DNA from: Armatimonadota bacterium
GTDB lineage: Bacteria; Armatimonadota; Zipacnadia; Zipacnadales; UBA5352
Reading direction: 5' to 3'
NCBI GenBank assembly: GCA_034722055.1
Contig: JAYENL010000154.1
Location: 1 to 24,343 of the forward strand
DNA length: 24,343 nucleotides
Part shown: one piece after another, positions 7,301 through 24,343 of the stretch
Layout: every line of letters begins with the position of its first letter
Position numbering within the stretch: the stretch's first letter is position 1
The notes under the pieces: model-generated
Databases searched by the model: none
What the model saw: the letters and a program-made list of their open reading frames with translations, nothing else
Told to the model about the DNA's origin: nothing
Made by a program: the position numbers and the translations under genes

Positions 7301-7423
7301 GCTCTCGATCTCCCGCTGCAGCCGGTCGGGCTCCAGCTCGCTGTTCCAGGACCAGAACGGCGCCCCCCGATAGATGGCTGATGGGCTGATCCACTGCTCC
7401 TCGAGCGCTCCCAGTTCGCTCAC
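4364..7423 (-). CDS. Large glycoside hydrolase, GH106 (alpha-L-rhamnosidase)-like, with C-terminal beta-sandwich domains
   Basis: 1019 aa, GTG start with GAGGGAG upstream. Motifs 'PFWSWN', 'GMGGAFMHSRYGL..PYLSERW', 'YDEDRWPSG.AGG', 'FTDEP', 'LTGH', 'PGIDLL', 'ELYGCTGW' and 'KRDYPAS'. No signal peptide is evident. Confidence 0.75.
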   Translation of the reverse strand: MSELGALEEQWISPSAIYRGAPFWSWNSELEPDRLQREIESMHGAGMGGAFMHSRYGLKTPYLSERWFECVTACVQKCRELDMKAYMYDEDRWPSGPAGGLVTRENPQFRLKYLSASFDEPDPATDKVHAVFDVQLDDDGRLVSYQKIAGPGEVMSADEVSAERALFFCPGFQEPSGWTNDGGYLDTLDLEAVAEFLRVTHEAYADRYGDVMGEIIPAVFTDEPSYGAQIHGTVDGRHRIPWTCALADEFERRRGYSLPDRLPEVVLPLADGEFSKVRHDYFRTITELFVEAFSEQVGQWCGEHDIALTGHMLAEQTLASQRQAIGAAMPHYEFMQWPGIDLLRDQCDELLTAKQCTSVADQLGAERVLTELYGCTGWDWRLEGHKFIGDWQWVCGINFRCPHLTHYSLAGGAKRDYPASIRDHSPWWPYYDTVEDYFARLSVMLTAGRPIRDVLVIHPIESGWGLTTGPEGTEAIERLNEQLNGIIYELMGQHYDFDLGDESLLSKHARVEGETLTVERMTYQVVLVPPSITLRQSTLELLEELVEAGGTVIFAGDAPRLIDGEPDDRPAMLRGKALSSLAEPQSVIAALQDVLHRRVRVTREGQHADFVWAMLREIDDGYLVFIQSHDRENSHAVTVSVDADGPIVEWDAMTERRIEVAPWEADGRVAFEVELGPTGSALFTIGIEVPEAGEREPRRTVADRTELSGPFDIERTEPNTMPLDYCQVRIADEEFSEPVPTLKADEQIRARYGLGTRLGREHQPWYLYTTGVVDTEPRDTCQLRYSFHVTALPTTCHLALESPEDYTVTVNGAEVSKVDGWWVDDDIETIDITAQLQKGENEVLLTFDYRPTMELENMYLVGEFGVASLDEEASNPGNMTLVAPPQTLELGSWVGQGLDFYGAAVRYMVTVQRPAEGQRCQVWLPEVECTAAALHVNGESFVMPWPPFAADITDALTEGENEVAVEIIGGRKNILGPLHTPWKPWTGPGEFDPNNPDWRYQYYLNDHGLMEPVMVQVLE

Positions 7424-9344: not shown

Positions 9345-10712
9345 ATGTCTCTGCCCGCTGACTACTGGTCGAACGTCGATGCCGGCAGCATTCCGAAGCT
9401 GGTCACCGACACCATTCCCGGCCCTCGCTCGGAGGAGCTGAATCGCCGGGGCACCGCACACATGATCGGCTACTCCAGCCAGGTGCGGCTCTTCCCGGTG
9501 GCCTTCGAGAGAGGACATGGGGTCACGCTCACCGACGTGGACGGCAACACCTACATTGACTTCTCGTCGGGGATCTACGTGACCACGCTCGGCCACTGTC
9601 ACCCCAAGATATCCGAGGCCGTGGCCTCAGCAGCCAGGCAGCTCATGAACTGCCACGACTTCAACACCCCCGTGAAGGTGGCGCTGCTGGAGAAGCTGGC
9701 GGAGGTGCAGCCGTGGGACCTGACGGGCATGCAGCTTTATGACAGCGGCACCACCGCCGTGGAGGCCGGGCTGCGCGTGTGCAGGGCGGCCACCGGCAAC
9801 CATGAGTTCATCTCCTGCTTCATGGACTTCCACGGCAAGACTGGTCACGCCGTCAGCCTCGGCAGGATGAAGCCCGTCAACGGACCGGGCAGAAGTCAGG
9901 GCTTCTACCTGGTGCCCCGCCCGGACCCCTACCGGCCGATGTTCACCACCGCCGAGGGGCAGATCGATACCGACGCCTACCTCGACTTCTACGACGAGTT
10001 CATCGAGAAGGCCACCACCGGGCAGGTGGCGGCCTTCGTCCTCGAGCCCGTCCAGGGCTGGGCGGGCTCGATCTTCCCGCCCGATGACTTCTTCCCCAAG
10101 CTGCGGCAGTTCTGCGACGAGCGGGGCATCCTGCTGATGGCCGACGAGGTCCTCACCAGCATGGGTCGCACCGGGAAGTACTTCTGCATGGAGCACTGGG
10201 AGACGGCGCCCGACGTGATCACCGTGGGCAAGGGCTTCGGCAACGGCTTCCCGGTGACGGGGATGCTGGTCTCCGACAAGTACAAGGAGAGCATCGCCAC
10301 CATCTCCGCCTCCACCAGCTACGGGGGCAACCCCATGGCCTGCGCGGCGGCGCTGGCGAGCATCGAGGCCATGGAGGAGGAGGGTCTGCTGGAGCACGCT
10401 CTGGAGCTGGGCGAGTTCATGCTCCAGCACATGCGCGGCATCCGCGATCGGCACCGGATCGTCGGCGACGTCCGGGGCCTGGGCTGCCTGCTGGGCATCG
10501 AGCTGGTGAAGGACCGCGAGACCAAGGAGCCCTTCGAGGAGGCGGGCCGGGCCGTCTACCAGCGGGCCTTCGAGAAGGGCCTGGCCTGGGTGCCGGCCTG
10601 GCACATCCTCCGGATGTCCCCGCCCATCGTCATGCAGAAGGAGGTCGCGGCCAAGGGCCTGGAGATCATCGAGGAGGCCATCGACGAGGTCGAGCGCGAG
10701 CTGGGATACTGA
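9345..10712 (+). CDS. PLP-dependent class III aminotransferase (GabT/ArgD-like)
   Basis: 455 aa from ATG 9345 (RBS GGAGGAG). Motifs 'DVDGNTYIDF', 'LGHCHP', 'FHGKT', 'VLEPVQG', 'LMADEVLTSMGRTG', the PLP lysine in 'DVITVGKGFGNGFP', 'TSYGGNPMAC', 'GDVRGLG' and 'LRMSPP'. Confidence 0.92.
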   Translation: MSLPADYWSNVDAGSIPKLVTDTIPGPRSEELNRRGTAHMIGYSSQVRLFPVAFERGHGVTLTDVDGNTYIDFSSGIYVTTLGHCHPKISEAVASAARQLMNCHDFNTPVKVALLEKLAEVQPWDLTGMQLYDSGTTAVEAGLRVCRAATGNHEFISCFMDFHGKTGHAVSLGRMKPVNGPGRSQGFYLVPRPDPYRPMFTTAEGQIDTDAYLDFYDEFIEKATTGQVAAFVLEPVQGWAGSIFPPDDFFPKLRQFCDERGILLMADEVLTSMGRTGKYFCMEHWETAPDVITVGKGFGNGFPVTGMLVSDKYKESIATISASTSYGGNPMACAAALASIEAMEEEGLLEHALELGEFMLQHMRGIRDRHRIVGDVRGLGCLLGIELVKDRETKEPFEEAGRAVYQRAFEKGLAWVPAWHILRMSPPIVMQKEVAAKGLEIIEEAIDEVERELGY

Positions 10713-10750
10713 CCGGCTCGACCTCGGCCGACGGATCGGGCCGTGGGCCC

Positions 10751-10779
10751 GGACGCGGGCGAGGGCGCCCGCGTCCCAG
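10751..10779. repeat. REP-like GC-rich hairpin inside the operon
   Basis: Perfect 11-bp stem GGACGCGGGCG-AGGG-CGCCCGCGTCC. Its reverse complement shares the core GCRGGCGCCCTCGCCYGCG with the element at 17237-17261. No U-tract follows directly. Confidence 0.6.
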
Positions 10780-10815
10780 TGTTTACTGCTGGTGACTGGT
10801 GGCTGATAGCTGTCA

Positions 10816-12294
10816 ATGACCGTATACCTTACCTTCGACATCGGGACCACCGCTCTCAAGACCGCCCTCGTGGGTGAGGACGGGGCGGTGCTGGCCATCG
10901 CTGAGGAGGAGTACTCCCCGCACACGCCCCAGCCGGGGCGCATGGAGATGGAGCCGGAGCGCTACTGGGAGGCGGCGGTGGCGGGCTCGCGCCGGGTCGT
11001 CGCGCGCGCCGGTATCGACCCCGGCCGCGTCGCCGCCATCGGCCTCAGCTCCCAGGCACAGAGCTTCCTGGCGCTGGACGCCTCCGGCCGGCCTCTGACG
11101 CCGGTGATCGTCTGGCTGGACGGCCGGGCCCGCGAGCTGGCGGAGCGGTGGGCCACTGACTGGCTGTCGGCACAGCGCTACCGGGCGATCTCCGGCTACC
11201 CGTGGGTGCCACACGAGCTGACGCTGTTCAAGATCGCCTGGCTGGCCGAGAACCGGCCTCAGATGCATGCCCGCGCTGCGTGGTTCCTCTGCCTCCCGGA
11301 CTACCTGGTCCTCCGGCTTACGGGAGAGGTCGCAACGGACTACAACATCGCGCAGATGAGCGGCATGCTGGATCTGCGCGCGGGCCGGTGGCACCAGGAG
11401 CTGCTGCAGGCGGCACGCATCTCCGAGGATCAGCTTCCGACCGTCCACGGGCCCGGGACGCCGGTGGGCGAGGTCACCGCGGTTGCCGCCGGCGAGCCGG
11501 GCATCCCGGCGGGCACCCCCGTCTGCGTGGGCTGCAACGATCAGCTCGCCGGGGCCATCGGCGCCGGCAACGTGCGGCCGGGCGTGGTCACCGAGACCAC
11601 CGGGACCGCGCTGGCGGTGGTCGCCACCACCGCCGAGCTGCTGGACGATGAGCGCCTCTTCGTCGGCCGCCACGCTGTCGAGGGCGCATCGTACGCCATG
11701 CCCTTCGCCCCGGTCTCGGCCGCGGTGCTGACGTGGTTCCGCGACCTCTGCGGCGAAGCCGGCGGCTGGGATGAGTTCCTGGCGGGCGTGGAGGACGTCC
11801 CCCCGGGCAGCGACGGGCTCACGGTGGTGCCGCACTTCTCGGGCACCGCCTCGCCCACGTTCAACCCCGACGCCCGGGGCGCCATGGTGGGACTCACACT
11901 GGCCCACGGCCGGGCGCACATCGCGCGAGCCATCATGGAATCCTGCGCCTGCGTCCTGCGAGAGCTTCTGGAGCCGGTCACCGACCACGGCATCGACCTG
12001 CGCACCGTCTGCTCCCTCGGCGGCGCGGCCCGCAGCGACACCTGGCTGCAGATGAAGGCCGACATGCTGGGGGTGCCCGTCGAGCGCCCGGCCTGCCCGG
12101 AGGCGGCCTCGCTGGGCGCGGCCATGCTGGCGGCGACCGGCACCGGGGTGTTCGAGTCCCTGCAGGACGCCGCCGATACCTGGTATCGACCCAGCGCGAC
12201 TTTCCAGCCTGATCCGAAGCGGGCTGCAGCCTGCGCCGAGATCCACGAGCGCTACCTCGACGCTTACCACCGCCTCTACGGGCGGGAGGAGTGA
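10816..12294 (+). CDS. FGGY-family carbohydrate kinase (xylulokinase-like)
   Basis: 492 aa. Motifs 'FDIGTTALK', 'IGLSSQ', 'IVWLDGRA', 'LPDYL..RLTG', 'GCNDQ', 'TTGT', 'PHFSG...P', 'RAIMES' and 'GGAARSDTWLQMKAD'. Confidence 0.92.
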   Translation: MTVYLTFDIGTTALKTALVGEDGAVLAIAEEEYSPHTPQPGRMEMEPERYWEAAVAGSRRVVARAGIDPGRVAAIGLSSQAQSFLALDASGRPLTPVIVWLDGRARELAERWATDWLSAQRYRAISGYPWVPHELTLFKIAWLAENRPQMHARAAWFLCLPDYLVLRLTGEVATDYNIAQMSGMLDLRAGRWHQELLQAARISEDQLPTVHGPGTPVGEVTAVAAGEPGIPAGTPVCVGCNDQLAGAIGAGNVRPGVVTETTGTALAVVATTAELLDDERLFVGRHAVEGASYAMPFAPVSAAVLTWFRDLCGEAGGWDEFLAGVEDVPPGSDGLTVVPHFSGTASPTFNPDARGAMVGLTLAHGRAHIARAIMESCACVLRELLEPVTDHGIDLRTVCSLGGAARSDTWLQMKADMLGVPVERPACPEAASLGAAMLAATGTGVFESLQDAADTWYRPSATFQPDPKRAAACAEIHERYLDAYHRLYGREE

Positions 12295-12298
12295 GCCG

Positions 12299-13084
12299 AT
12301 GTCATACCTGTTCCGCGACCAGTCCTCGACCACGCTACGCGAGCACATCGAGCAGCAGTCCCTGCTGCTGCTGCCCGTGGGCACTACCGAGGAGCACGGT
12401 CCGCACCTGCCGGTGGACACGGATGTGCGCATCGCGGAGGCCTACGGCCACGCCCTCGCCCGCGAGATCGCCGGCGAGCTGCCGGTGCTGCTGATGGACG
12501 CCATCCGCTACGGCTACTCCATGAGCATCATGCGCCAGTGGCCGGGCACCATCGTCGTCGGCACTCGCACCTTCATGGACTACGTCTTCGGCGTCTGCCG
12601 CTCGGTGCTGGAGATGGGCTTCAGGCACCTCGCAGTGCTGGACTGCCACGGGCATCACAGCGGCCTGCTCAGCGGGGTGAACCGGGAGCTGTGCGACGCC
12701 TGCGACGTGGCCATCGCCATCATCAGCCCGGCCAGGCTCTCTGCCGAGGCCTTCAACGAGGTGCGCCGGTCCGACCGTGGCGGCGCCATCCACGGCGGAG
12801 AGTGGGAGACCTCGCTGCTGCTGCACATCAGCCCCGAGGTGGTGGACATGTCGCTGGCCGGCGACGAGGACGCCATGCGCTACCACTCGGAGTTCGTGGC
12901 CGGCGACAACTTCACGGGCGGTCAGAAGGTCACATGGTCCACCTGGTATCTGCAGCCGTCTCACACGGGCATCTACGGCGATCCCACGGTCGCCACCGCC
13001 CAGACCGGCGAGGCGATCATGCGCGCGGCCGTCGAGACCGGCGCCCGCTTCCTGCGCGAGTTCTACCACCACGCCCCAGCGTGA
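12299..13084 (+). CDS. Creatininase (creatinine amidohydrolase) family metallohydrolase
   Basis: 261 aa. Motifs 'LPVGTTEEHGPHLPVDTD', 'YGYS.....WPGT', 'IHGGEWETS' and 'GIYGDPTVATAQTGE'. Starts 4 nt after the kinase stop codon. Confidence 0.9.
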   Translation: MSYLFRDQSSTTLREHIEQQSLLLLPVGTTEEHGPHLPVDTDVRIAEAYGHALAREIAGELPVLLMDAIRYGYSMSIMRQWPGTIVVGTRTFMDYVFGVCRSVLEMGFRHLAVLDCHGHHSGLLSGVNRELCDACDVAIAIISPARLSAEAFNEVRRSDRGGAIHGGEWETSLLLHISPEVVDMSLAGDEDAMRYHSEFVAGDNFTGGQKVTWSTWYLQPSHTGIYGDPTVATAQTGEAIMRAAVETGARFLREFYHHAPA

Positions 13085-13094
13085 GGTGACAGTG

Positions 13095-15722
13095 ATGGCC
13101 GAGTCGCTGGATGAGATCCGCCGGGAGCTGGATGGCCGGGAGCTGCTGGTGGTGCCCTACTGCCACGCGGACTGGGCCTGGACGCACTCCCGCCGCTGGC
13201 ACGCAGTGCGCTACACGCTGGCTATCGATGAGGTCCTCGACATCATGGCGGCCCAGGACGAGGCCGGCGTGAGTGGCGATGCGCCGGAGGCCTACCGCTG
13301 GTACACCGACTGCTACCGCACGCAGATCGTGCCCTTCCTGCAGGCCCGGCCGGAGCGCGAGGCGGAGCTGCGCCGGCGCATCGCCGAGGGCCGCATCGCC
13401 ATCTGCGGCGGATACGCCAACGTGCGCATCAACCACGTCCCCGGCGAGCTGTTCGTCCGCGGCATGGTCCTGGGGCGCCGGGAGTGGGAGCGGCTCTTCC
13501 CCGAGGCGGAGCTGACCGTGCACTCCGACATCGTGGACGTGGCCGTCGGCCACCCGCAACTGCCGCAACTGCTGCGCCTGGCGGGCTATCGCTCCCTGCA
13601 GTTCTGGCGCCCGGAGGAGGCACTGAATGCTAAGGGCATTCCGCACCACTTCGTGTGGGAGGGCCTGGATGGCACGCGCGTGCTGGCCGCACGGGGCTGC
13701 TACGGTGGCCTCAACGCGCTCGGCTACGCCCCCGAGAACTTCGCGGAGGGCTGGGACGAGACCGTGCGCTTCTGGTGGGAGAACCTGCTGGAGTACAAGC
13801 TCCAGCACTCGCCCGCCGACCTGCTGTGGCTGCAGCGCGGCGCCGACGACGCCCGGCCGCTGCGCACCAACGTGGCGTCCGACGAGCCCATGGACCTGCC
13901 GGGGCTGATCCGGGCCTGGAACGACCGGGAAAGCTCCTCCATGCGCTTCGCCACGCCGGTTGAGGCCTTCCGGCTCCTGGAGCAGCGGCGCGAGGAGCTG
14001 CCGGTCGTCAGCGGCACGCTCGACCCCTGCGACGTGGCCTACAACGCGGCCTGGGGCGGCTCGCACGGCCTGTGGCGGCTGAGGCAGGAGGCGGCGCGGG
14101 AGATCGGCGTCACCGAGATGCTGGAGGCCCTCGGCGCCGCGTCGGGTGCAACGGACGCTGACCCGGATGCCGCACAGGAGCGTCTGGACGACCTGTGGCG
14201 CGACGCGCTGCTCTTCTCGGCCCACGCCACCCAGTGGCTCTTCGAGGAGGACTTCGGCGAGCTCTACGCCCTGGCGCAGAGCACTGTGACGCGGGCCCGC
14301 CGCGAGCAGCAGCAGGTGCTGCGCTCCCTGTCATCGCGAATCGACTGCCCCGAGGACGCGGCGGAGGTGCTGGTCAATCCGCTGCCTCGCGAGCGGGAGG
14401 TCACGGTGCCGCTGCGCGTCACCTTCGTCCGCGGCGAGCGTCCCGGCGCGCCGGAGCCCATGCGGCTGATCGACGGCGCCGGCCGGGAGGTGCCCTGGCA
14501 GCTTCTACGAGACCTGCGCCACGCCAACGCCACGTGGGAGTGCGATGTGCTGGCCCGGGTCACGCTGCCGCCGGGCGGCTGGACGGTCCTGCGCTGGGAG
14601 GAGGCCCCGCCGGCCGAGGACCCCGGGCCCGCGGGTGAGGCGTCGGCGGAGTGCATCGAGGCCGACCTGCTGAGCCTGCACTTCGACCGCGGCCGACTCA
14701 TGCGCATCGAGGATCGGGCGGCTGGTCGGGAGTGGCTCGCGCCGCAGCACACGCCCTTCGGCCATCTGCGCATCTACGACGTGGACACCACCGCGCCGCT
14801 GCACGTGGGGCCCATCCTGGGGCGCACGGACGCGGTCTGGGAGCGCTGGGGCGTGATCGAGCGCGGTCCGCTCCGCTGGAGCGTGCGCTGTGAGGGCGCC
14901 ATTGGGGCCTGCCCGGCGGCCATGGAGGTCCGCCTGTACCGCGGCCAGCGACGCGTGGAGTTCGCAGTGGAGGTCGAGTGGGACGGCCGCGGCGGCTTCC
15001 TGGCCTCGCACCTGCCCTGGCCCGGCCCTGGCGAGCTCTTCGGCGACATGCCCTTCTGCGTGGAGCCCACGCCGCTTGACGACGAGCCCTATGTGGGCAT
15101 CGAGCGCGCCCGCGAGGGGATGTTCATCGCCCGCAGCTTCGTGGACCACGTGGGCGACGGTGGCTCGATCGCCTATCTCTCGCACGATGGCGACCGCTAC
15201 TTCATCCGCGACCGCGAGCGCAGCACGCTGGCGCATATCCTCATCAACTCCGTCCGCGAGCCCTACGCGGAGTGGGAGGAGAGCGTCAACCGCACCATGC
15301 GCGGCAAGGGCCTGCATCGCTTCACCTTCAGCCTCGTCCCCCATGAGGGCGACTGGCGCGACGGCGGCCTGTGGCGGCTCTCCGAGGAGCTGCGCACACC
15401 GGTGCTGCAGACGCGACCGCTCGGGGCGGGGGACCTGCCGATGCACGGAGAGCTGCTGGCCGTCGAGCCCGGGAACGTGAGCCTTACCGCCTGCTACGCC
15501 GACGCCGGCCGGGTGCTGGTGCGGCTGTGCGAGCTGCACGGGACGCACACGGAGGCCATGGTGCGGCTGCCCTTCGAGGCTGCGGAGGCGGCGCTGGTGG
15601 ACCTGGCCGGCCACAGCCTCGACGCCCGGCCGCCGCGCGTGGACGGCCGCACAGTTGCCCTGCCCATGTCCCCGCATCAGATCGCCACGCTGGCGCTGAC
15701 TGTGGAGGAGGAATCATCGTGA
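13095..15722 (+). CDS. Divergent GH38 (alpha-mannosidase-like) glycoside hydrolase
   Basis: 875 aa from ATG 13095; the track start at 12777 overlaps the previous gene. Motifs 'VPYCHADWAW' (HxD), 'GRIAICGG', 'GELFVR', 'DVAVGHPQLPQLL', 'FVWEGLDGTRV', 'VNPLP..R', 'G.HRFTFSLVPH.GDW' and 'LVRLCE..G'. Confidence 0.8.
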   Translation: MAESLDEIRRELDGRELLVVPYCHADWAWTHSRRWHAVRYTLAIDEVLDIMAAQDEAGVSGDAPEAYRWYTDCYRTQIVPFLQARPEREAELRRRIAEGRIAICGGYANVRINHVPGELFVRGMVLGRREWERLFPEAELTVHSDIVDVAVGHPQLPQLLRLAGYRSLQFWRPEEALNAKGIPHHFVWEGLDGTRVLAARGCYGGLNALGYAPENFAEGWDETVRFWWENLLEYKLQHSPADLLWLQRGADDARPLRTNVASDEPMDLPGLIRAWNDRESSSMRFATPVEAFRLLEQRREELPVVSGTLDPCDVAYNAAWGGSHGLWRLRQEAAREIGVTEMLEALGAASGATDADPDAAQERLDDLWRDALLFSAHATQWLFEEDFGELYALAQSTVTRARREQQQVLRSLSSRIDCPEDAAEVLVNPLPREREVTVPLRVTFVRGERPGAPEPMRLIDGAGREVPWQLLRDLRHANATWECDVLARVTLPPGGWTVLRWEEAPPAEDPGPAGEASAECIEADLLSLHFDRGRLMRIEDRAAGREWLAPQHTPFGHLRIYDVDTTAPLHVGPILGRTDAVWERWGVIERGPLRWSVRCEGAIGACPAAMEVRLYRGQRRVEFAVEVEWDGRGGFLASHLPWPGPGELFGDMPFCVEPTPLDDEPYVGIERAREGMFIARSFVDHVGDGGSIAYLSHDGDRYFIRDRERSTLAHILINSVREPYAEWEESVNRTMRGKGLHRFTFSLVPHEGDWRDGGLWRLSEELRTPVLQTRPLGAGDLPMHGELLAVEPGNVSLTACYADAGRVLVRLCELHGTHTEAMVRLPFEAAEAALVDLAGHSLDARPPRVDGRTVALPMSPHQIATLALTVEEESS

Positions 15723-17149
15723 CACGCGGACTGCAGAGCATCACGCTGGGCCTGGTGCCCATCAGTAAGTTCGTGTTCAGCCGCGAGGACGCGCTGCACT
15801 ACAAGGGGCTCATCGAGCAGCGGCTGCGAGAGCTGGGCGTGCGCTTCGTGAGCATAGACTCGATCACCGAGGACGGGACGCTGTTCCGGCACGAGGATCT
15901 CCCGCGGGTCATCGAGCACCTCCGCCGGGAGGGCGTGGACGCTATCTTCTGCCCACACTGCAACTTCGGCACCGAGGACGTGGCCGCGCTCCTCGGCCGC
16001 GAGATGAGCCTGCCGTATCTGCTGTGGGGGCCGCGCGATGAGGAGCCGCTGCCCGACGGCACCCGCCTCCGCGACACCCAGTGTGGGCTGTTCGCCACCA
16101 GCCAGATCCTGCGGCGGATGGACGTGCCCTTCACCTACATCCCCAACTGCCGCCTCGACGATGCCGCCTTCGACCGCGGCGTGCTCGGCTTCCTGCGCGT
16201 GGCGTCGGTGGTGCGGGCCTTTCGGGGCATGCACATCGGGCAGATCGGCCAGCGCAACGACTTCTTCTGGACCGTGATGGTCAATGAGGCCGAGCTGCTG
16301 GAGCGGTTCGGCATCGAGGTCTATCAGATCTACCTCACAGATGTCCTGGATGAGGTGGAGCGGCTGGCAGCCTCTCCCAGCGCGGAGCTAAAGGAGCTTG
16401 TGGAGCGGATGCGTGAGGAGGTCACCTTCGAGGGCCTCGGCGATGGCCGGGTGCGCGCGGTGGCGGCGCTGAAGCTGGTGCTGACCGCGCTGGCGGAGGA
16501 GCATGGCCTGTCGGCCATCGCCCAGCAGTGCTTCCCCGGCTTCCAGCAGCGATTCGGCGTCTACCCCTGCTACGCCAACAGCCTGCTCACCGATGAGGGC
16601 GTGCCGGTCATCTGCGAGACGGACGTGCATGGCGCCATCACCGCATGCATCCTCCAGGCCGCCGCGCTGGGCGAGAGCCCGCCATTCTTCGCCGACCTCA
16701 CCATCCGCCATCCCGGCAACGACAATGCCGAGCTGCTCTGGCACTGCGGGGCCTTCCCGGCCTCGCTGGCCGCCGACGATGAGGACCTGCGCGTCGGGGA
16801 GCACTTCATTATGCCCCAGGACGCCACCGGCGTCTGCCACTGGCGCATCCGGGGCGGCGACATGACCATCGCGCGCTTCAGCGATGATCGCGGCGACTAT
16901 CGGCTCGGGTTCGGAGAGGGCCGGGCCACCGATGGCCCCGAGACGGTCGGCACCTACACCTGGATGGAGGTGGACGACTGGCCTGCCTGGGAGCGCCGCT
17001 TCATCCGCGGTCCCTACATCCACCACGTCGCCGGCGTTCACGGCCACTGGGCCACGATCCTCCACGAGGCCTGCCGCTACATCCCCGGCCTGCAGCCCGA
17101 CCCCATCGGGACCGATGGCAGGGAGCTGGAGGACTACTGGTGGCGGTGA
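15719..17149 (+). CDS. L-fucose/L-arabinose isomerase family protein
   Basis: 476 aa from GTG 15719, overlapping the GH38 stop (GTGA), RBS GGAGGAGG. Motifs 'HCNFGTE', 'LRDTQCG', 'IGQIGQR', 'CETDVHGAIT' (ExD), 'LLWHCG', 'TIARF' and 'GPYIHHVAG'. Confidence 0.85.
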   Translation: MTRGLQSITLGLVPISKFVFSREDALHYKGLIEQRLRELGVRFVSIDSITEDGTLFRHEDLPRVIEHLRREGVDAIFCPHCNFGTEDVAALLGREMSLPYLLWGPRDEEPLPDGTRLRDTQCGLFATSQILRRMDVPFTYIPNCRLDDAAFDRGVLGFLRVASVVRAFRGMHIGQIGQRNDFFWTVMVNEAELLERFGIEVYQIYLTDVLDEVERLAASPSAELKELVERMREEVTFEGLGDGRVRAVAALKLVLTALAEEHGLSAIAQQCFPGFQQRFGVYPCYANSLLTDEGVPVICETDVHGAITACILQAAALGESPPFFADLTIRHPGNDNAELLWHCGAFPASLAADDEDLRVGEHFIMPQDATGVCHWRIRGGDMTIARFSDDRGDYRLGFGEGRATDGPETVGTYTWMEVDDWPAWERRFIRGPYIHHVAGVHGHWATILHEACRYIPGLQPDPIGTDGRELEDYWWR

Positions 17150-17171
17150 GGGGACTGGCGCTCGCGCCGAG

Positions 17172-17366
17172 TGGCGGAAGTGCGCGCATTGTCTCGCGTC
17201 AGAACAACACGTCTGCCGGCACTACCCACCCGTTAAGTAGCGCAGGCGCCCTCGCCTGCGCGCCGTTTCGTGGGTAGAGATGCGTTCCCGGCCGGGGTGG
17301 AACCTTCGGCCGGTTCGCTCCGCTCACGGTCCTCGCCGGGCGCTCCGCGCCCGGCGGCCCCTCCAC
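17172..17366. repeat. Second cluster of REP-like palindromes between convergent operons
   Basis: GTAG foot plus stem GCGCAGGCG-CCCT-CGCCTGCGC at 17237-17261. A perfect 10-bp stem CGCCGGGCGC-TCC-GCGCCCGGCG at 17334-17356 is followed by ...CCAC (GTGG foot on minus). An imperfect stem at about 17173-17217 is followed by CTAC (GTAG foot on minus). Confidence 0.65.
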
Positions 17367-17448
17367 GAGAATCCTGCCCGTCCCCGGCACGGTCAGAGCC
17401 GCCAACTGCCCTCGTCGCGAACATGCGACGACTCCGGCGAGTGGCGCG

Positions 17449-18201
17449 CTACGGGCCGGCGACCACCAGGCGATTGACGGGCGGGTAGCGGTCCTCGGAG
17501 ACCAGCTCGCGGCCCTGTGCATCCCGGAGCTCGCGGTAGACCAGCACCCGGTAGCCCGGAGCGCCGCGCACCAGCCGGTGGCACTCGCCGGGCCGCAGAT
17601 CCGAGTCGATGCGCAGCACCTCCCGCGGCGGCAGGACGCCCCGAACCTTCGTGTGCAGCGTCGCCATCGGACCTGCCTCGCGGCCGAGAATGGCGACGCC
17701 CAGCGAGTCCTCGGTTGGCTGGGCCTCGATGCGCACCGGCCACGGATGGGAGTTGCGCAGCCGCAGGTCGATGTCGTACTGGGCGACGGCCGCGTCCCGC
17801 CCCAGCGGGCAGTAGTGGGGCGCCCACTGGTGGCGGTGCCGCTCCACGATCTCCAGGCCGGCCACCAGCGCGGCGTTGTAGAGCGTGGTGGAGGTCTGGC
17901 AGACCCCGCCGCCCCACGCCGGGTGCATCTCCCCGCCGTAGCTGACGGGGGCCTTCAGGTAGCCGCGGTCAGCCGTCCACGGGCCCACGGTACGGTTGAA
18001 GGAGAGGACCTCCCCGGGCTCCAGCACCGTCCCGTGCAGGGCCCTCGCCGCTCGGAGGGCGTTGGCTCGCTGGTTCCGCTCCCGGTCCTGCAGCGGCGTC
18101 CGGTAGCTGCCGACGAGCGCCCGGCTTGGAGGAATGGCTGCCGCCGCCACCAGGCCGATGGTCGCCAGCATTCCCGCCGCCCATGCGAACTTGCCGCCCA
18201 T
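17449..18201 (-). CDS. VanW-domain protein with an N-terminal signal/anchor and a C-terminal G5-like segment
   Basis: 250 aa from ATG 18201 (RBS GGGAGG). Motifs 'R..N...AA..L.GTVLEPGEVLSFNRTVGP....RGY..AP', 'GGGVCQTSTTLYNAAL.AGLEIVERHRH' and 'Y.PLGRDAAV....IDLRLRN'. The tail 'G.PGYRV.VYR...ELVSEDRYPP' is G5-like. Confidence 0.88.
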   Translation of the reverse strand: MGGKFAWAAGMLATIGLVAAAAIPPSRALVGSYRTPLQDRERNQRANALRAARALHGTVLEPGEVLSFNRTVGPWTADRGYLKAPVSYGGEMHPAWGGGVCQTSTTLYNAALVAGLEIVERHRHQWAPHYCPLGRDAAVAQYDIDLRLRNSHPWPVRIEAQPTEDSLGVAILGREAGPMATLHTKVRGVLPPREVLRIDSDLRPGECHRLVRGAPGYRVLVYRELRDAQGRELVSEDRYPPVNRLVVAGP

Positions 18202-18217
18202 CGCCGCCTCCCTCCGC

Positions 18218-21200
18218 CTACGGCTCGATGACGAACTCATCCGCGGCCCCGTAGGACCGCACCGTGGGGTCATACATGTTGTAGGCAACTGTGGGCATGG
18301 CTCTGTAACGCCCTGGGACCTCCGCCCGCATCCGGTAGCTGAGCGTCCTGGCGCCGATCGGCAGGAACTTCACGGCGAAGGCCACCATCTCGTCGCGCAC
18401 GATCTGGTCGCTCCACCACCTGTCCCACTCCCATTGCCGGAGCCGGCCGCGGTCGATGACCTCGCAGCCCGCCGGGATGGGGTCCTCGATCACGAGGAAC
18501 TCGTGCGCTCGTCCGGCGCGCACCGTCAGCGTCACCTCCACCACATCACCGCTGCGGTAGCGCGTCCGCCGGCCGGGCACGGTCTGATCCAGCAGGGCCA
18601 GGCCGCGCCTCGCCGGCGTCTTCACCTGCCGGTAGGTGCGCTCGAGCACCAGCGCCGAGCCGCCGGTCACGGGCGTGGCGAGGTCGGCCCTCACGTGCTG
18701 ACTCAGCTCCAGCGTGTAGTAGAGCCGCCCCGCGCCCGGAGAGGCGCGCTCGACGGCCACCTCAACGTTCCCCGGCCGCAGCAGCTCTGGCGGCACCTCC
18801 ACCACCCTCTCGGGTCGGAAGACATCCTCGGCGGTGAAGCGGCCGGAGAAAACCTCGCGCTCGCCAACTGTCACAGTGGCGATGAAGTCCGGCGACAGCT
18901 CACCGCTGACCCGCAGGTAGTCCGCCAGCGCATAGAGCACGAAGGCCGTGTCGCGCGTGGAGTACCAGTGGTCGCCTCTGCGATGCACGAGCAGCCACCG
19001 GACCACCTTCGACAGGCGGGTGTCGTCGGGCGTCAGCCGACAGCCCGCTGAGAGCGCCAGGGCCGTGGTCTCGGCGTCGGAGAACACGCCGCCGTGCGCC
19101 TCCCAGGAGATGAGGCCCCCGGTGGATTCGGCCTCTCGCCACAGCTTCCGGAGCAGGTCGCGGGCCGGCTCCTCCTCGTCCATGGCGTGCAGCGCCAGGC
19201 AGGCCAGAGCCCGGGACCGCACCGGGGCCTCCCGCACGCGATCCACCAGCGCCTGGACGCCGTTGCTCTCCGAGGCCGCCCGCACCACGTCGCCCCGGCC
19301 GGCCACGGCCAGCGTGTAGGCCACCCACGCCATGTCGGTGGCTTCCAGCGTGCCCTTCTCGTAGAGCTCCGCCAGCCGCCCGATGCCGGCTACAAGCACC
19401 GGCGCCGTCACCTCAAAGCCGGCCTCCCGCGCCTGCACCAGCGCGAAGACAACATAGGCCGTCATCCACGGATCCTGATCATCGTAGCCCCACCATCCCC
19501 ATCCGTCGTGGCCGCGCTGGTAGTCGTAGATCTTCAGCAGGCCGCGCTCCACCATCTTCGGGAGGCGCTGGCGCAGCTCCGGCTCCTCGATCCCGAACTC
19601 GTCCAGCATCCTGGCGATGATCACGTCAGGCAGGAAGCTGGAGGTGGTCTGCTCGATGCACCCGTAGGGGTACTGCGCCAGGTAGTCCAGCGATCCCAGC
19701 ATGGCGGAGGCGATCGACGGCGTGAGGCGAACTGTCAGCGAGGGCGTGCCCTCGATGACGTCCTTGCGCACCGGGAGCACCTCCACCGTGCGGCCTCCGG
19801 CGGCGCCTGAGCGCAGCTCCACGCGGCGGCGCCCGAAGGGCAGCACGGGGATGGCCCGCTGCATGGCGTCCTCCAGCTCCCCGGCCTTCGCCCACACCCG
19901 CACGGTCTGATCGCCCACCGCCGGCGCCTCGACCTCCCACTCGAACCGCCGCGCCTCTCCGGCCGCCACCGCTCCGGACTGCTGCGGCCGACCGTCGATC
20001 GTCAGGTAGTCCCCGTCCAGCCCCACCTCCGCCTGCAGCGAGCCGTCGGTGCGGTTGTGCACCACGCCTCCGACGCGCAGCCGGTCGCCCTGGGTGATGA
20101 AGCGCGGCGCCTCCAGCCGCACCAGGAACGGCTTGGTCACCACCGCCTCGTGGGTGCTCTGGCCCACCAGGGTCTGGGCCGTGTGCGCCCGCGCCGTCGC
20201 GCGCCAGGTGGTGAGGTTGTCGGGCAGGGCGAACTCGAAGGTGGCCTCCCCGGCCTCGTTGGTCACCGCGGAGGGCGCCCAGAAGGCGGTGTCGCGGAAG
20301 CGCCGCCGCGTCTCGATCTGCGCGCCGGCCCCCTTCCAGCCGTCGCTGAGGTAGATCATGGGGAACGAGAAGTCCGTGTACACCCGGTGGCTGCGCCGGG
20401 GGTAGAAGGCGTCAACGATCTCCTGCGTCCGGTCGGGGTACAGCGCGAAGAGGGCCTGGTCCACCACCGCCAGCGAGACCTCCGCGCGGGCGGGCCGGCC
20501 CTCCGCGTCCGTCGCCCGCACCGTGTAGACAGCCGCGTCGCCGGGACGATACTGTCGCCGATCGCTGCTCACCTCCAGCTCCAGCGTCCGGCTCTGGGGC
20601 TCAATGCGCAGCTCCAGCGCCTCCTCCACAAAGCGCTTGTCGTGCACGAAGGCCACGCTCACCCAGCAGTTCGGCGCCCACTCGGGCTTCAGCTCCACCT
20701 CGACCACGGTGGAGTTCTCGCGCAGCTTCACCAGGCGGCGGGAGTGGATCCGGCTACTCTCGACGGTCAGCAGCGCCGTGGTCGGCACCAGTTCGGTGTT
20801 GATGAGGATGCGCGCCGTCTCGCCCTCGCTGTAGCTGCGCCGGTCGGCGACCAGGTCTAGCTCCCCGTAGGGGTAGTCGTAGGTGAAGCGGGCGCGGCGT
20901 GCCACCCACAGCCACGTGCTGCCGGTGATGCGGTTGCCGCGGCTGTCGCGAGTGGTCGCCAGCACCCGGTAGCTGCCCTCCGCGCCCGGCGTGAAGGTCA
21001 CGGTCGCCGTCCCGTCCGCTCCGGTCTGCCAGTCGGCGACGGCCCGCTCCTCGAAGTGCTCCTCGTCCTCAGACCACTCCGAGAGCTCCAGGCGGACCTC
21101 GCCGTTGGCCTGCACCGGATTGTCGTCGTAGTCGATGGTGCGGATGGTGACCGTGGTCTCCCTGCCCACGTGCAGGATCGAGGGCTCCGCCTCCACCTGC

Positions 21201-22936
21201 ACCCGGAAGGCCCCCTGCACCACCAGCACTCTGTGCGAGGCGCTCACCGAGCGCCGGCTGGCATCGGTTACCTGCACCTCGATCCTGTAGGTCCAGTCGG
21301 AGGGCCCGCGCCGGCGCTCCTCCTCTTCCTCGAACGTCGTGGGCACCGAGAGCCTGAACCGGCCCGCGCTATCGGTCCTCCCCTCCCCCGTCGTGACCAC
21401 CTCGCCGCCGCCATAGTCGCCGTAGTAGTCGAAGTAGCCGCCCTCGGCGGCCCAGCCCTCGTCCTCCGGCCACCACCAGGCCTCTGAACGCGTGACGTAA
21501 TACCGCACCTCCGCGTCCGCCACCGGTGCCCCGTAGAAGTAGCTGGCGGTGGCGGTCACCTCGATGGGATCGCCCCGCACGTAGCGCTCGCGGGATGTGC
21601 CGACCTCCACCTCCCACTCCGGCTTGCGATACTCGGCGACGACGAAGCGCGAGTAGTGCGGCTCCCCGGCCACCGCGGTCTTCAGCGCGTAGACGCCCGG
21701 CAGCGCGGCATCCGAGAGGCTCAGCGTGCCGTGGAAGGAGCCCATCTCGCTGGTGTGGAGGCTCGCGGTGTGGACGAGGTTGTCCATGTCATCGCGCACC
21801 TGCACCTCAACGGGCAGGTCTGCGGGCACGCCGTAGCCGCCCTCTTCGAGCTCCCGCACGATGCCCTTGAAGTGCACATCGTGGCCCGACCGGTAGGCGG
21901 GCCGATCCGTGTAGCTGTAGACGCGGTAGCCCTCCTCCTCAGAGCTCCAGGGGCGGTACCACCCCTCCACAGCGGCCGTTGATGGCCCGTCCCCGGCTCT
22001 GATCACGATGCGGCCCTCCGCCTCCTCCTCGGCACTCTCCAGGGCGAGCTTCACCAGCCCGTCGGAGTCCGTCACCCCCTCGGCCAGCAGCGTGTCCTCG
22101 CGCACCGCCTCCACACTCAGGCCCGGCCGTGGCTCGCCGGTGGCGATATCCACCGTCCACGCCAGCACCGACCCCGGCATGCGCTTGCAGACCAGCGCCA
22201 GGTCGGTGACAGTCAGCACCTCCACCCGCTGCAGCTCGCCCACGCGGAGCGCCACCGGGTAGACGCCGGGCTCCAGCCGCGGCAGGTCCATCCGCATGGC
22301 GAAGACGCCCTCACCGTCGCGCCCGGTGATCTCCTCGGTGGTGCGCCGCACCCGCTCCAGGCGGTCGCTGGCGTCCAGGTCCAGCTCATCCTCATCGGCC
22401 CGGCGATCGCCCAGCAGGGCCGCCAGGTGCGTTTGCCCGGTCACCTCCGTCGCCTCGAGGCTCAGCCGGTAGATCGCCATCTCCATGTCGCCGAAGGGGG
22501 CGAAGCCGCGCACGCGAAGCTGTGGCTCCTCATCGGGGGTGAACACGCGCGTGGGCACCGACACCTCCATGAAGGGGTCCACCGGCTGCAGCTCCAGGCG
22601 CAGATCGAGCGTCTCGCCCTCCGTCACCGTCACATCCCGGCCGCCCCGGAGCCGGTGGGCCTCGGAGCGAACCTCCAGGTCGTAGCTGGCGGCCGGAATC
22701 TCCGCGAACCTGAAGTGCCCGCGCGCGTCCGTGCGCCTCGTGAAGCGCCCCTCGCTCCGGTATCCTTGAGAGAGTGTGACGCGGGCGTCAGCGATGGGGA
22801 CTCCCAGCTCCTCCGCGATCACCACGCCCTGGACGCTGCCGCGGGGCGTCTCCGACATCAGCGCCCACGCCATCACCGCGCCAGCGGCCAGCAGGGCCGC
22901 GCAGAGGACCGCCGCTCGCGAGCGACTCTCACGCAT
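18218..22936 (-). CDS. Bacterial alpha-2-macroglobulin (thioester-containing) with an N-terminal carboxypeptidase-regulatory-like domain
   Basis: About 1572 aa; start is ATG 22936 or 22942, overlapping the upstream stop. It has an N-terminal TM segment, then 'GSVQGVV....G.PIADARVTL...TDARGHFRF.EIPAASYDL', 'YTDRPAYRSG', 'EYRKPEWEV', 'EVSLAVVD', 'RRRFRDTAFW', 'LPDNLTTWR', thioester 'YPYGCIEQ' (CIEQ 19660-19649), 'GWGWW', 'WYSTRDT', 'EDPIPAGCE' and 'MYDP'. Confidence 0.93.
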   Translation of the reverse strand: MRESRSRAAVLCAALLAAGAVMAWALMSETPRGSVQGVVIAEELGVPIADARVTLSQGYRSEGRFTRRTDARGHFRFAEIPAASYDLEVRSEAHRLRGGRDVTVTEGETLDLRLELQPVDPFMEVSVPTRVFTPDEEPQLRVRGFAPFGDMEMAIYRLSLEATEVTGQTHLAALLGDRRADEDELDLDASDRLERVRRTTEEITGRDGEGVFAMRMDLPRLEPGVYPVALRVGELQRVEVLTVTDLALVCKRMPGSVLAWTVDIATGEPRPGLSVEAVREDTLLAEGVTDSDGLVKLALESAEEEAEGRIVIRAGDGPSTAAVEGWYRPWSSEEEGYRVYSYTDRPAYRSGHDVHFKGIVRELEEGGYGVPADLPVEVQVRDDMDNLVHTASLHTSEMGSFHGTLSLSDAALPGVYALKTAVAGEPHYSRFVVAEYRKPEWEVEVGTSRERYVRGDPIEVTATASYFYGAPVADAEVRYYVTRSEAWWWPEDEGWAAEGGYFDYYGDYGGGEVVTTGEGRTDSAGRFRLSVPTTFEEEEERRRGPSDWTYRIEVQVTDASRRSVSASHRVLVVQGAFRVQVEAEPSILHVGRETTVTIRTIDYDDNPVQANGEVRLELSEWSEDEEHFEERAVADWQTGADGTATVTFTPGAEGSYRVLATTRDSRGNRITGSTWLWVARRARFTYDYPYGELDLVADRRSYSEGETARILINTELVPTTALLTVESSRIHSRRLVKLRENSTVVEVELKPEWAPNCWVSVAFVHDKRFVEEALELRIEPQSRTLELEVSSDRRQYRPGDAAVYTVRATDAEGRPARAEVSLAVVDQALFALYPDRTQEIVDAFYPRRSHRVYTDFSFPMIYLSDGWKGAGAQIETRRRFRDTAFWAPSAVTNEAGEATFEFALPDNLTTWRATARAHTAQTLVGQSTHEAVVTKPFLVRLEAPRFITQGDRLRVGGVVHNRTDGSLQAEVGLDGDYLTIDGRPQQSGAVAAGEARRFEWEVEAPAVGDQTVRVWAKAGELEDAMQRAIPVLPFGRRRVELRSGAAGGRTVEVLPVRKDVIEGTPSLTVRLTPSIASAMLGSLDYLAQYPYGCIEQTTSSFLPDVIIARMLDEFGIEEPELRQRLPKMVERGLLKIYDYQRGHDGWGWWGYDDQDPWMTAYVVFALVQAREAGFEVTAPVLVAGIGRLAELYEKGTLEATDMAWVAYTLAVAGRGDVVRAASESNGVQALVDRVREAPVRSRALACLALHAMDEEEPARDLLRKLWREAESTGGLISWEAHGGVFSDAETTALALSAGCRLTPDDTRLSKVVRWLLVHRRGDHWYSTRDTAFVLYALADYLRVSGELSPDFIATVTVGEREVFSGRFTAEDVFRPERVVEVPPELLRPGNVEVAVERASPGAGRLYYTLELSQHVRADLATPVTGGSALVLERTYRQVKTPARRGLALLDQTVPGRRTRYRSGDVVEVTLTVRAGRAHEFLVIEDPIPAGCEVIDRGRLRQWEWDRWWSDQIVRDEMVAFAVKFLPIGARTLSYRMRAEVPGRYRAMPTVAYNMYDPTVRSYGAADEFVIEP

Positions 22937-24343
22937 CGCCATCACCGCCCCCCTGCAGAGCCTCAGCCCGGGCAAGCGTGGTGCGCACGGCAATCCACAC
23001 CGCCGCCACGAGGGCTATCGCCACTACAACGCCGGCCTTGACCGCGCGCGAGATGGGCCCCAGGCCGGCCACGATCGGCCCAAGCTGCAGCGCCACCAGC
23101 GCCGCCCCCACCAGGGCCGCATGTGGCGCCGCGGCCAGGCAGACGGCCCTGTCGCGATCCGTGGACCACGCCGCCAGCACCATCCACACCAGCTCGCCCA
23201 CCACCAGGCCCACCAGCAGTCCCTGCAGCGCGCCCTGCCCCCACACCGCCAGCATTGCCGCAGGCAGCAGAGCCACACCCAGCATCGGCAGCGGCGCCCG
23301 CGCCATCATCCGCCGCAGGGCATCGAGCGGGTCACCGGCCTCCGCCGCGGCCCGCCAGGACCCGGCGCCCTGCGCCACCAGCCCCAGCACCGCCAGCGCG
23401 CCCACGATCAGCCCGAAGTAGACGTAGTGCTCCTCCAGGTCCACCGCCTGGTGGCCACCCGTGGTCTCCAGCACCATCCGGTAGGCCGCAAGCAGGACCA
23501 CGATGGTGAAGCTGCCGACCAGCAGGGGCGCCGCCAGCCCGCGCCGCTTCCGCGCCGCCGCGCTCCCGATTACCGCCAGCGGCGCCACGCCGGCCGCCAG
23601 TGCCAGCGCCTCCCCGTAGCCGTGCAACACCTTGAAGGCCACCGCCACCATCGCCAGCGCCACCAGGCCCAGGGCGAAGGCCTCCAGCGCCGGCCGCCCC
23701 TCCTCGGCACCGGTCTCGGCCGCCAGCCACGCCGCCATCCCCATTCCCACGGCGCCGGTCAGCACCACCAGCAGCGGACTCCACTGGCCGAAGAGCTTCC
23801 AGGCGAGCATCAGGGCCACCAGCACCGGCAGGAGCGTCGCCACCAGCGCGATCAGCGCCTCTCGCAGGCCGACATCGCCCTCATCGTCCGCCGAGGCCAG
23901 CGTCGAGGGGATCATGGCCCCCAGTCCAGCGCTCGCCACCAGCAGCACGGGCAGCGGCCAGTAGGCCTCGGCGGCGTCGCTGCCCCCGAAGTGCTCCAGG
24001 CCCAACCGCGCTCCCAGCGCCCCCGCCACGGCCACCAGCGCGAAGATCTCCACACCGAGCACCGCCGGCGAGTCAGTAGCCTCCTCGCGCGCCCCCATCG
24101 GGGCCAGGCACAGCCGCCAGAGCAGCGCCGCCAGCACAGCCGAGAGGGCAAAGCCGACGAGGGGTACGGTGGGGGAGGCAGCGAAGAGGATCAGCACCAG
24201 CGCCGGCCCGGCGGCCGCGGTACTGATCAGGCCGATGGCGCGCGCCAGCCATCCGCTGCTGGCCCATGAGCGGCTGGCCTCGATGGAAGCGTAGACCCCG
24301 GCTACCGCGCCGATCAGCAGTCCCGAGCCCAGGCCCATGCCGG
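22929..24343 (-). CDS. Multi-pass membrane protein resembling a membrane pyrophosphatase (HppA) scaffold without catalytic loops; 5' end probably outside the window
   Basis: At least 469 aa with roughly 15 hydrophobic helices. The frame is open to the window edge, and the stop overlaps the A2M start. The CDS is well supported; the HppA resemblance is by-eye alignment to a recalled consensus (see findings). Confidence 0.7.
   Translation of the reverse strand, partial: GMGLGSGLLIGAVAGVYASIEASRSWASSGWLARAIGLISTAAAGPALVLILFAASPTVPLVGFALSAVLAALLWRLCLAPMGAREEATDSPAVLGVEIFALVAVAGALGARLGLEHFGGSDAAEAYWPLPVLLVASAGLGAMIPSTLASADDEGDVGLREALIALVATLLPVLVALMLAWKLFGQWSPLLVVLTGAVGMGMAAWLAAETGAEEGRPALEAFALGLVALAMVAVAFKVLHGYGEALALAAGVAPLAVIGSAAARKRRGLAAPLLVGSFTIVVLLAAYRMVLETTGGHQAVDLEEHYVYFGLIVGALAVLGLVAQGAGSWRAAAEAGDPLDALRRMMARAPLPMLGVALLPAAMLAVWGQGALQGLLVGLVVGELVWMVLAAWSTDRDRAVCLAAAPHAALVGAALVALQLGPIVAGLGPISRAVKAGVVVAIALVAAVWIAVRTTLARAEALQGGGDGDA

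Follow-up and report, generated by a model that had tools for sequence, protein, structure and literature searches.

A protease that cuts the bait of an alpha-2-macroglobulin (A2M) becomes caged and thioester-bound. Two kinds of bacterial A2M system stand closest to the locus described here. In the E. coli yfhM (ECAM)-pbpC pair and Salmonella Sa-A2M, an A2M with CxEQ and MG, BRD, TED and MG10 domains is anchored at the inner membrane and encoded beside a peptidoglycan cross-linking enzyme (PMC5764988, PMC4498604), and a trap-and-repair hypothesis was proposed from the yfhM-pbpC gene pair (PMC5764988). In the six-gene Type II systems, P. aeruginosa magABCDEF and E. coli yfa, the A2M lacks CxEQ and is co-encoded with a membrane protein; MagB, with one predicted helix, holds and stabilises MagD (PMC5764988). 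Here we analyse a window of 24,343 nucleotides from an Armatimonadota bacterium (assembly GCA_034722055.1), being the first 24343 bases of the 80841-base contig JAYENL010000154.1, which carries an A2M gene between a gene for a multi-pass membrane protein (MEM, our label for gene and product) and one for a VanW-family protein. This three-gene unit is real and phylum-wide, includes one unnamed protein family (MEM) and does not show the defining features of either the yfhM-pbpC or the mag/yfa systems. We found no published description of an A2M-VanW-MEM unit in open-access text, a scope outside of which most subscription papers and bioRxiv supplements fall. The features of the unit are as follows.

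22929 to beyond 24343, minus strand: MEM, of which the window carries the last 470 of about 536 residues; predicted membrane pyrophosphatase (mPPase) fold, 17 helices.
18218..22942, minus strand: A2M with thioester (Type I by sequence), 1574 aa; Pfam and PDB match.
17449..18201, minus strand: VanW-family putative L,D-transpeptidase, 250 aa; PF04294.
22838..22915, minus strand: predicted membrane anchor of A2M and E-T-P-x-G motif, from an alignment of 51 rows.
20291..20386, minus strand: A2M bait segment, including Lys870 (20333-20335), placed by alignment with YfhM.
19649..19660, minus strand: CIEQ thioester motif, A2M residues 1095-1098.
18202..18217, minus strand: spacer of 16 nt between A2M and VanW, with the ribosome-binding-site-like GGAGGGAGG.
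17794..17901, minus strand: coding stretch of the putative VanW catalytic triad, Cys101, His124 and Asp136.

As in yfhM-pbpC and Sa-A2M, the A2M of the unit has CxEQ and the same domains, is predicted to sit in the inner membrane and is encoded beside a putative cross-linking enzyme. Unlike yfhM-pbpC, the unit has a VanW putative L,D-transpeptidase instead of a bifunctional class A penicillin-binding protein; its A2M has a predicted uncleaved helix and is not a lipoprotein, carries an extra N-terminal CarboxypepD_reg-like domain and has a bait that is both shorter and conserved, with its Lys fixed; the unit further includes a third gene, for a protein of 17 helices. With the mag and yfa operons it shares an A2M co-encoded with a membrane protein, whereas it keeps the thioester, counts three genes and contains no Mag/Yfa-type partner within them. 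No pbpC was found in the flanks, and in the source genome the highest-scoring TIGR02073 match lies on another contig, at 332 bits where the cut-off is 494. Of the 251 genomes of the phylum, 3 have a PBP1C over the cut-off, the source genome not among them, each time beside a different A2M of about 1900 aa. A previous reading of this DNA made from the sequence alone (the sequence-only reading) had seen neither pbpC nor yfa/mag partners; the flanks agree on both counts and the TIGR02073 search on pbpC. We also considered a hidden pbpC and rejected it, the weak BiPBP_C match on contig C303 of the source genome being below cut-off.

The same reading had described three co-directional, tightly coupled genes, and indeed all three lie on the minus strand, joined by an overlap and a short spacer. 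The MEM stop overlaps the A2M start, as had been noticed, by 14 nt when A2M starts at the ATG at 22942 and by 8 nt when it starts at the second ATG at 22936, and the 16 nt counted between the A2M stop and the VanW ATG contain GGAGGGAGG. The edge of the window is a 100-N scaffold gap with 127 identical bases on both flanks, and the 5' end of MEM lies past it; the full gene would have about 536 codons by arithmetic and is unbroken in close relatives. We rejected MEM as a frameshifted or truncated gene, the break being a scaffold-gap artefact. We delimit the unit to three genes because the gene upstream of MEM, heparinase II/III-like, is divergent, and the one downstream of VanW, fucose-isomerase-like, is convergent. 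Inspection of the genes upstream of 24343, proposed in the sequence-only reading as a check, thus revealed a divergent neighbour and no pbpC/yfa-type partner.

The trio is conserved well beyond this contig. The window MEM was matched in 17 of 61 related genomes (source genome counted); A2M follows MEM in all 14 fetched loci with sequence past MEM, and VanW comes next in the 10 whose contigs extend that far. In 251 genomes of the phylum, a MEM profile search found MEM in at least 117 among the matches listed, a lower bound for which partial hits to ordinary pyrophosphatases were set aside and beyond which lie 71 weak rows. We fetched 40 of these loci, on long contigs and across the score range; 36 of them have A2M next to MEM, and 31 have all three genes together. 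A profile of the A2M N-terminus matched 138 genomes from its first residues, among the matches listed. This A2M occurs in 115 of the 117 MEM genomes, 64 being expected by chance, and is adjacent in 98; these counts are descriptive, as the genomes are kin and not independent. From the 23 A2M genomes without a listed MEM, 20 loci were fetched and 18 of them hold a divergent MEM. MEM and A2M are separated by -23 to +12 nt in 48 of 50 loci (starts chosen nearest the stop). Conservation of the trio in relatives, which the sequence-only reading had left to be checked, is thereby borne out.

Starting from VanW gave a similar picture. Among the best 80 loci, 9 are Bacillota-labelled, each with a long VanW and neither A2M nor MEM. 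The other 71 comprise 49 trios, 11 loci with A2M that had no room for MEM or no MEM upstream (short contig), 3 at a contig start and 8 without an adjacent A2M. We hand-picked 25 genomes in which the unit is broken or incomplete, and all 25 keep the short VanW (2 judged by match start alone), against none of 9 comparison genomes lacking this A2M. A VanW frame of 233 aa occurs in two additional comparison genomes, which carry a different type of A2M. Since the trio is conserved across the phylum, chance grouping is excluded, and the gene-level link of MEM, A2M and VanW is near certain. Outside the phylum, the range rests on a single Bacillota-type sample of 301 genomes in which no MEM was found, the best 10 of 14 MEM-profile matches being intact mPPases. 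One trio (L147) lies on a contig from an Actinomycetota-labelled bin, by mis-binning or transfer.

The A2M consists of an N-terminal helix, a CarboxypepD_reg-like domain, MG domains, BRD, A2M, TED and MG10, with Pfam bMG3, MG2, A2M_BRD, A2M, TED and bMG10 all over cut-off; it is the sole bMG10 match in the source genome, and its best PDB match is E. coli YfhM (E 7.6e-22). Among 48 homologues extending to the thioester site (two fragments left out), 44 have CxEQ. Judged by sequence criteria, namely CxEQ together with MG/BRD/TED/MG10, this is a Type I bacterial A2M. The N-terminal hydrophobic helix is followed by E-T-P-x-G (E in 44, P in 41 and G in 50 of 51 rows), and no conserved lipobox was found, a lipobox-like pattern occurring in 3 of 50 (pattern test, no signal-peptide predictor). 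We therefore predict that A2M is anchored by an uncleaved membrane helix.

The bait is about 11 residues shorter than that of E. coli and nearly uniform in length (20 residues in most cases, range 19-29). It ranks with the most conserved parts of A2M, its mean identity being 0.48 vs 0.41 for TED; the ECAM bait is described as largely disordered (PMC4498604). The position of Lys870 is Lys in 45 of 46 aligned A2Ms, and a pattern recovered the bait Lys in 116 of 118 distinct segments, both misses showing Lys by eye. Asp precedes it in 86 of the 116, and Gly, Ala or Ser follows it in 100. The window bait reads W-K-G, most relatives D-K-G/A and some D-K-F. The pattern is absent from nine A2Ms of other types in the phylum.

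Other A2M arrangements were seen along the way. A second type of about 1450-1500 aa (L248, L250, L253, L254, L255, L256) is preceded immediately by AMMECR1, its baits vary, and its loci contain neither VanW nor MEM; three of these six show no CxEQ match. In L249, L251 and L252 the A2M is followed by a TPR/zinc-ribbon gene, with tatC upstream in the two scanned, and by eye the bait Lys lies in the same register as in the MEM-linked type. In L222, L223 and L234, from one family, Flp-pilus cpaB-like and ParA-like ATPase genes come after an unlinked A2M, and L224, L225 and L227 have a similar layout. The A2M gene is split across at least two frames in L045, L036, L133, L138, L177 and L217, through sequencing error or decay.

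The short VanW comprises an N-terminal helix, a VanW domain (residues 44-171; PF04294, E 1e-44, 151.6 bits against a cut-off of 27) and a G5 domain that is below the Pfam cut-off and backed by PDB G5 matches; PG4 is absent. Its structure model has a pLDDT of 94.6. The GGGVCQ and ERHRH motifs picked out in the sequence-only reading are both present, and Cys101, His124 and Asp136 are each invariant in 42 of 42 aligned VanW proteins; they were matched to the published triad by conservation, not by geometry. The sequence-only reading had taken VanW for a domain of unknown activity, a view that does not stand, given that VanW domains are reported as L,D-transpeptidases that form 3-3 cross-links, for which a Cys is essential and a Cys-His-Asp triad has been proposed (PMC11348318; also PMC12729407). 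The short VanW carries the family's sequence hallmarks and is assigned to it on these. C. difficile Ldt4/Ldt5 likewise have a membrane helix, a VanW domain with Cys, His and Asp, and G5 (PMC11348318), whereas the VanW of the unit has no PG4, is 250 aa long, is a second, dedicated paralogue and belongs to a diderm phylum. The alignment in PMC11348318 includes residues 47-176 of a Chthonomonas VanW, which from these limits is probably of the short type and is outside the proteins assayed there; the main text of that article makes no mention of macroglobulin. We rejected a role in vancomycin resistance, with NF033128 at 46.8 bits against a cut-off of 365 and no van genes among the scanned neighbours. 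The source genome also encodes a PG4-type VanW, two YkuD proteins and a DD-carboxypeptidase, the last a possible source of tetrapeptide donors; the short VanW thus seems reserved for the unit.

MEM has no Pfam or NCBIfam match. The PF03030 hidden Markov model (HMM) matched 0 of 83 MEM members at E 0.1, the ESM Atlas gave a best feature score of 0.87 and no named family, and a PDB sequence search with the MEM profile yielded weak hydrophobic matches only; no fused form was found among 8000 longer candidates, which is weak evidence. For its structure we used the AlphaFold2 model of P0001, a homologue sharing 50% identity with the window protein (pLDDT 93, pTM 0.94, 17 long helices). Foldseek matched this model to mPPases (E 7.9e-10); all 36 matches at E <=0.001 outrank any other fold, the listed ones being mPPases. 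VIA placed mPPase chains at Z 31.5 (root-mean-square deviation 2.9, 500 residues) and 30.4, the next chain at 10.9. As modelled, MEM has the 16-17 helix, two-ring mPPase fold, with a helix bundle and helix order like those of T. maritima, V. radiata and P. aerophilum (PF03030). Sequence homology is detectable as well: the MEM profile aligns collinearly with 30 mPPase rows (global mode, probability 99.6), and over 7763 long open reading frames its sole match besides itself is the genome's H+-PPase (E 2.9e-11).

The catalytic centre of mPPases is lost from MEM. Alignment gaps coincide with the cytoplasmic, catalysis-bearing loops, and the inner loops amount to about 146 residues against 346 in mPPases. 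At 49 invariant mPPase positions (charged or Asn in at least 28 of 30 rows, counts that include one wrongly extracted row, L092, as do the alignment and the conservation values), MEM has 25 gaps, 23 replacements and 1 residue kept in class. The latter is the Asp position of ADxFES, Glu or Asp in 63 of 83 members and in 58 of 92 in a wider alignment. The acidic motifs DVGADLVGKxE, DNVGDNVGD, DNAKK and GDPFKD and the coupling funnel are gone, and in the ion gate Ala mostly replaces the helix-6 Glu and a hydrophobic residue the helix-16 Lys, leaving the helix-6 Asp position alone acidic. Because the catalytic loops are deleted and 48 of the 49 invariant charged residues lost, MEM is very unlikely to hydrolyse pyrophosphate. 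It falls outside the mPPase family by HMM, catalytic motifs and ion gate, despite the shared fold. The description of MEM as mPPase-like in the sequence-only reading holds for the fold and does not extend to a working pyrophosphatase. On the side of true mPPases, genes in five genomes of the phylum (G069:C45, G108:C2, G084:C30, G096:C5, G109:C55) have open frames of 987-1125 aa that PF03030 matches in two parts (about 1-298 and 290-645), which indicates an insertion of a few hundred residues in mid-protein.

Conservation in MEM has moved to the other side of the membrane. Under the mPPase topology, Lys and Arg are enriched in the inner loops of 82 of 82 sequences, in support of the positive-inside orientation, and all but one of the top 30 positions by conservation fall in outer loops or in the outer halves of helices. 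In MEM, conservation averages 0.46 inside and 1.32 outside; true mPPases have 2.15 and 1.30, figures comparable in direction alone since the two alignment sets differ in depth. All 8 outer loops of MEM are more conserved than all 8 inner ones, the reverse of true mPPases. Selection acts on the predicted outer face of MEM, and we take the outer side to be the periplasm because the source genome carries a BamA-family gene.

What is observed is the trio, its co-inheritance, its domain content, the retention of the thioester and of the VanW triad and the loss of the MEM catalytic centre; the division of labour among the three proteins is what we infer from it. MEM, A2M and VanW would form one inner-membrane, periplasm-facing envelope-defence unit. 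A2M would cage proteases that cut at the bait Lys, either Lys-cutting proteases or wall-attacking enzymes, a target class that may be narrow because the bait is short and its Lys fixed. The dedicated short VanW would re-cross-link the nearby wall, in the slot held by E. coli PBP1C, and MEM, as a non-catalytic mPPase descendant, would be a platform that holds or stabilises A2M and VanW on the outer face, as MagB does for MagD. The gene content of the genome supports this (BamA, DD-carboxypeptidase, intact H+-PPase). The sequence-only reading had placed VanW in the wall-enzyme slot, which is plausible in a unit devoid of pbpC, but the exchange is not like for like because an L,D-transpeptidase only cross-links, whereas PBP1C is predicted also to polymerise glycan. 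We give even chances to this reading of a trap combined with wall re-cross-linking on a non-catalytic membrane platform.

Several points weigh against it. The thioester motif is absent from 4 of 48 A2Ms, MEM and A2M are non-adjacent in 17 of 115 genomes (some being contig breaks), and in 2 of 20 A2M loci no MEM was found beside A2M. Seventeen helices are more than simple anchoring would call for, and A2M already has a membrane helix. Many of the conserved MEM residues fall in helices 10, 13 and 15 and in loop 12-13, a part of the outer face that is the dimer interface in mPPases (PMC10897367), and may serve self-dimerisation alone. With a PG4-type VanW and two YkuD proteins present, generic repair would need no dedicated paralogue, and 3 of 7 foreign VanW proteins were active in the assays reported (PMC11348318). 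A complex prediction of MEM with the first 345 residues of A2M (the cognate pair of L029) scored 0.14 against a mark of 0.32 and weighs neither way.

Instead of repairing the wall, VanW may act on A2M itself, either linking a peptidoglycan stem to the bait Lys or facing a D-K-G/A bait that mimics the Glu-mDAP/Lys-Ala stem (mDAP, meso-diaminopimelic acid), which we regard as unlikely. A2M would then be a wall-tethered trap or sensor of wall-cutting enzymes docked on MEM, likewise an improbable arrangement. The constancy of the bait Lys and of its neighbours would fit, as would a dedicated short VanW kept with this A2M even when unlinked. LdtA-C attach peptidoglycan to a Lys of Lpp, so that attachment by an L,D-transpeptidase through Lys, there a terminal acceptor residue, has a precedent (PMC12729407). 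In the six AMMECR1-paired A2Ms, which have neither VanW nor MEM close by, the baits vary and lack the motif, and the three TatC-adjacent ones have the same-register Lys by eye, the one genome checked (G086) holding a short VanW. To our knowledge, however, known protein acceptors of L,D-transpeptidases are terminal residues and not an internal loop, and the bait is an internal loop. Moreover, a D-configured stem is poorly mimicked by L-residues, the Lys could be a trypsin-type P1 site or part of a structural salt bridge, and the W-K-G of the window and the D-K-F of some relatives depart from the supposed mimic. Extended to the whole unit, the same idea makes a wall-damage trap or sensor in which VanW ties the bait Lys to peptidoglycan (or the bait mimics the stem), wall-cutting enzymes would trigger the thioester, and the change would be passed to an mPPase-derived protein working from its outer face; this too we hold to be unlikely.

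Other explanations concern MEM or the grouping as such. A role for MEM as a gated channel for ions or solutes, which triggered A2M would open to report envelope attack, is quite unlikely: the sole retained charged residue does align with the ion-gate Asp of ADxFES (equated with D6.50 of PMC10897367 by motif, not by structure overlay), and conserved His185, Arg362, Glu366 and Gln492 are found at the outer end of helices 6, 12 and 16 of the inner ring, but the other gate residues are lost, the retained acid occurs in just 58 of 92 rows of the wider alignment, and the cytoplasmic half lacks conservation and hence any obvious surface for downstream signalling. We are equally doubtful that MEM faces outwards as an enzyme or transporter that handles a phosphorylated lipid, such as the undecaprenyl carrier, or a fragment of the wall to feed wall repair. 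Arg, Lys, His, Asp and Tyr are frequent among its conserved outer residues (Arg362 in 89 of 92, Tyr380 in 86 of 92), and wall-turnover genes turn up nearby, with NamZ preceding a solitary MEM in L061, a DD-carboxypeptidase after the trio in L073, and GH20-domain and beta-lactamase-fold genes after VanW in L075-L077 (one family). Nevertheless, MEM has no known catalytic motif, the genes flanking the trio otherwise differ (54 scanned), a lipid carrier is unused in L,D-transpeptidation, and MEM tracks A2M more closely than VanW in gene order (36 vs 31 of 40). That the three are merely co-regulated envelope-stress genes with separate jobs would agree with the unit being split in several families, yet they are gained and lost jointly even when unlinked, and their clustering survives rearrangement, MEM coming after VanW in L215-L217 and L230; this last explanation is highly unlikely.

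As for the rest of the window, positions 9345-17149 on the plus strand, converging on VanW, encode a class III aminotransferase, an FGGY kinase, a creatininase-like protein, GH38 and the fucose-isomerase-like protein, a cluster that is probably for sugar catabolism and outside the A2M unit. Further out are a DUF6785/DUF6784 membrane protein (1988-3970) and a GH106-like glycoside hydrolase (4364-7423). A scan of 17000-17600 called no promoter or terminator; a 7-bp inverted repeat at 17412-17431, 17 nt past the VanW stop and without a T run, was left uncalled by it.

The unit can be tested because it is present in lineages that have representatives in culture (Chthonomonas, Fimbriimonadaceae, Armatimonas and Abditibacterium labels). 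The idea that bacterial A2Ms work together with a wall-repair enzyme is a hypothesis based on the yfhM-pbpC gene pair (PMC5764988), and an unrelated cross-linking enzyme in the same slot, phylum-wide, would provide independent support and a new test case for it. If the wall-damage explanation were true, it would imply a new use of a complement-like protein, an L,D-transpeptidase and an mPPase fold together. The fixed bait Lys may offer a direct handle on the natural target of bacterial A2Ms. Furthermore, the outer-ring helices of mPPases are described as having a 'largely unknown function' (PMC10897367), and MEM, which keeps the mPPase bundle without catalysis, may bear on what these helices are for.

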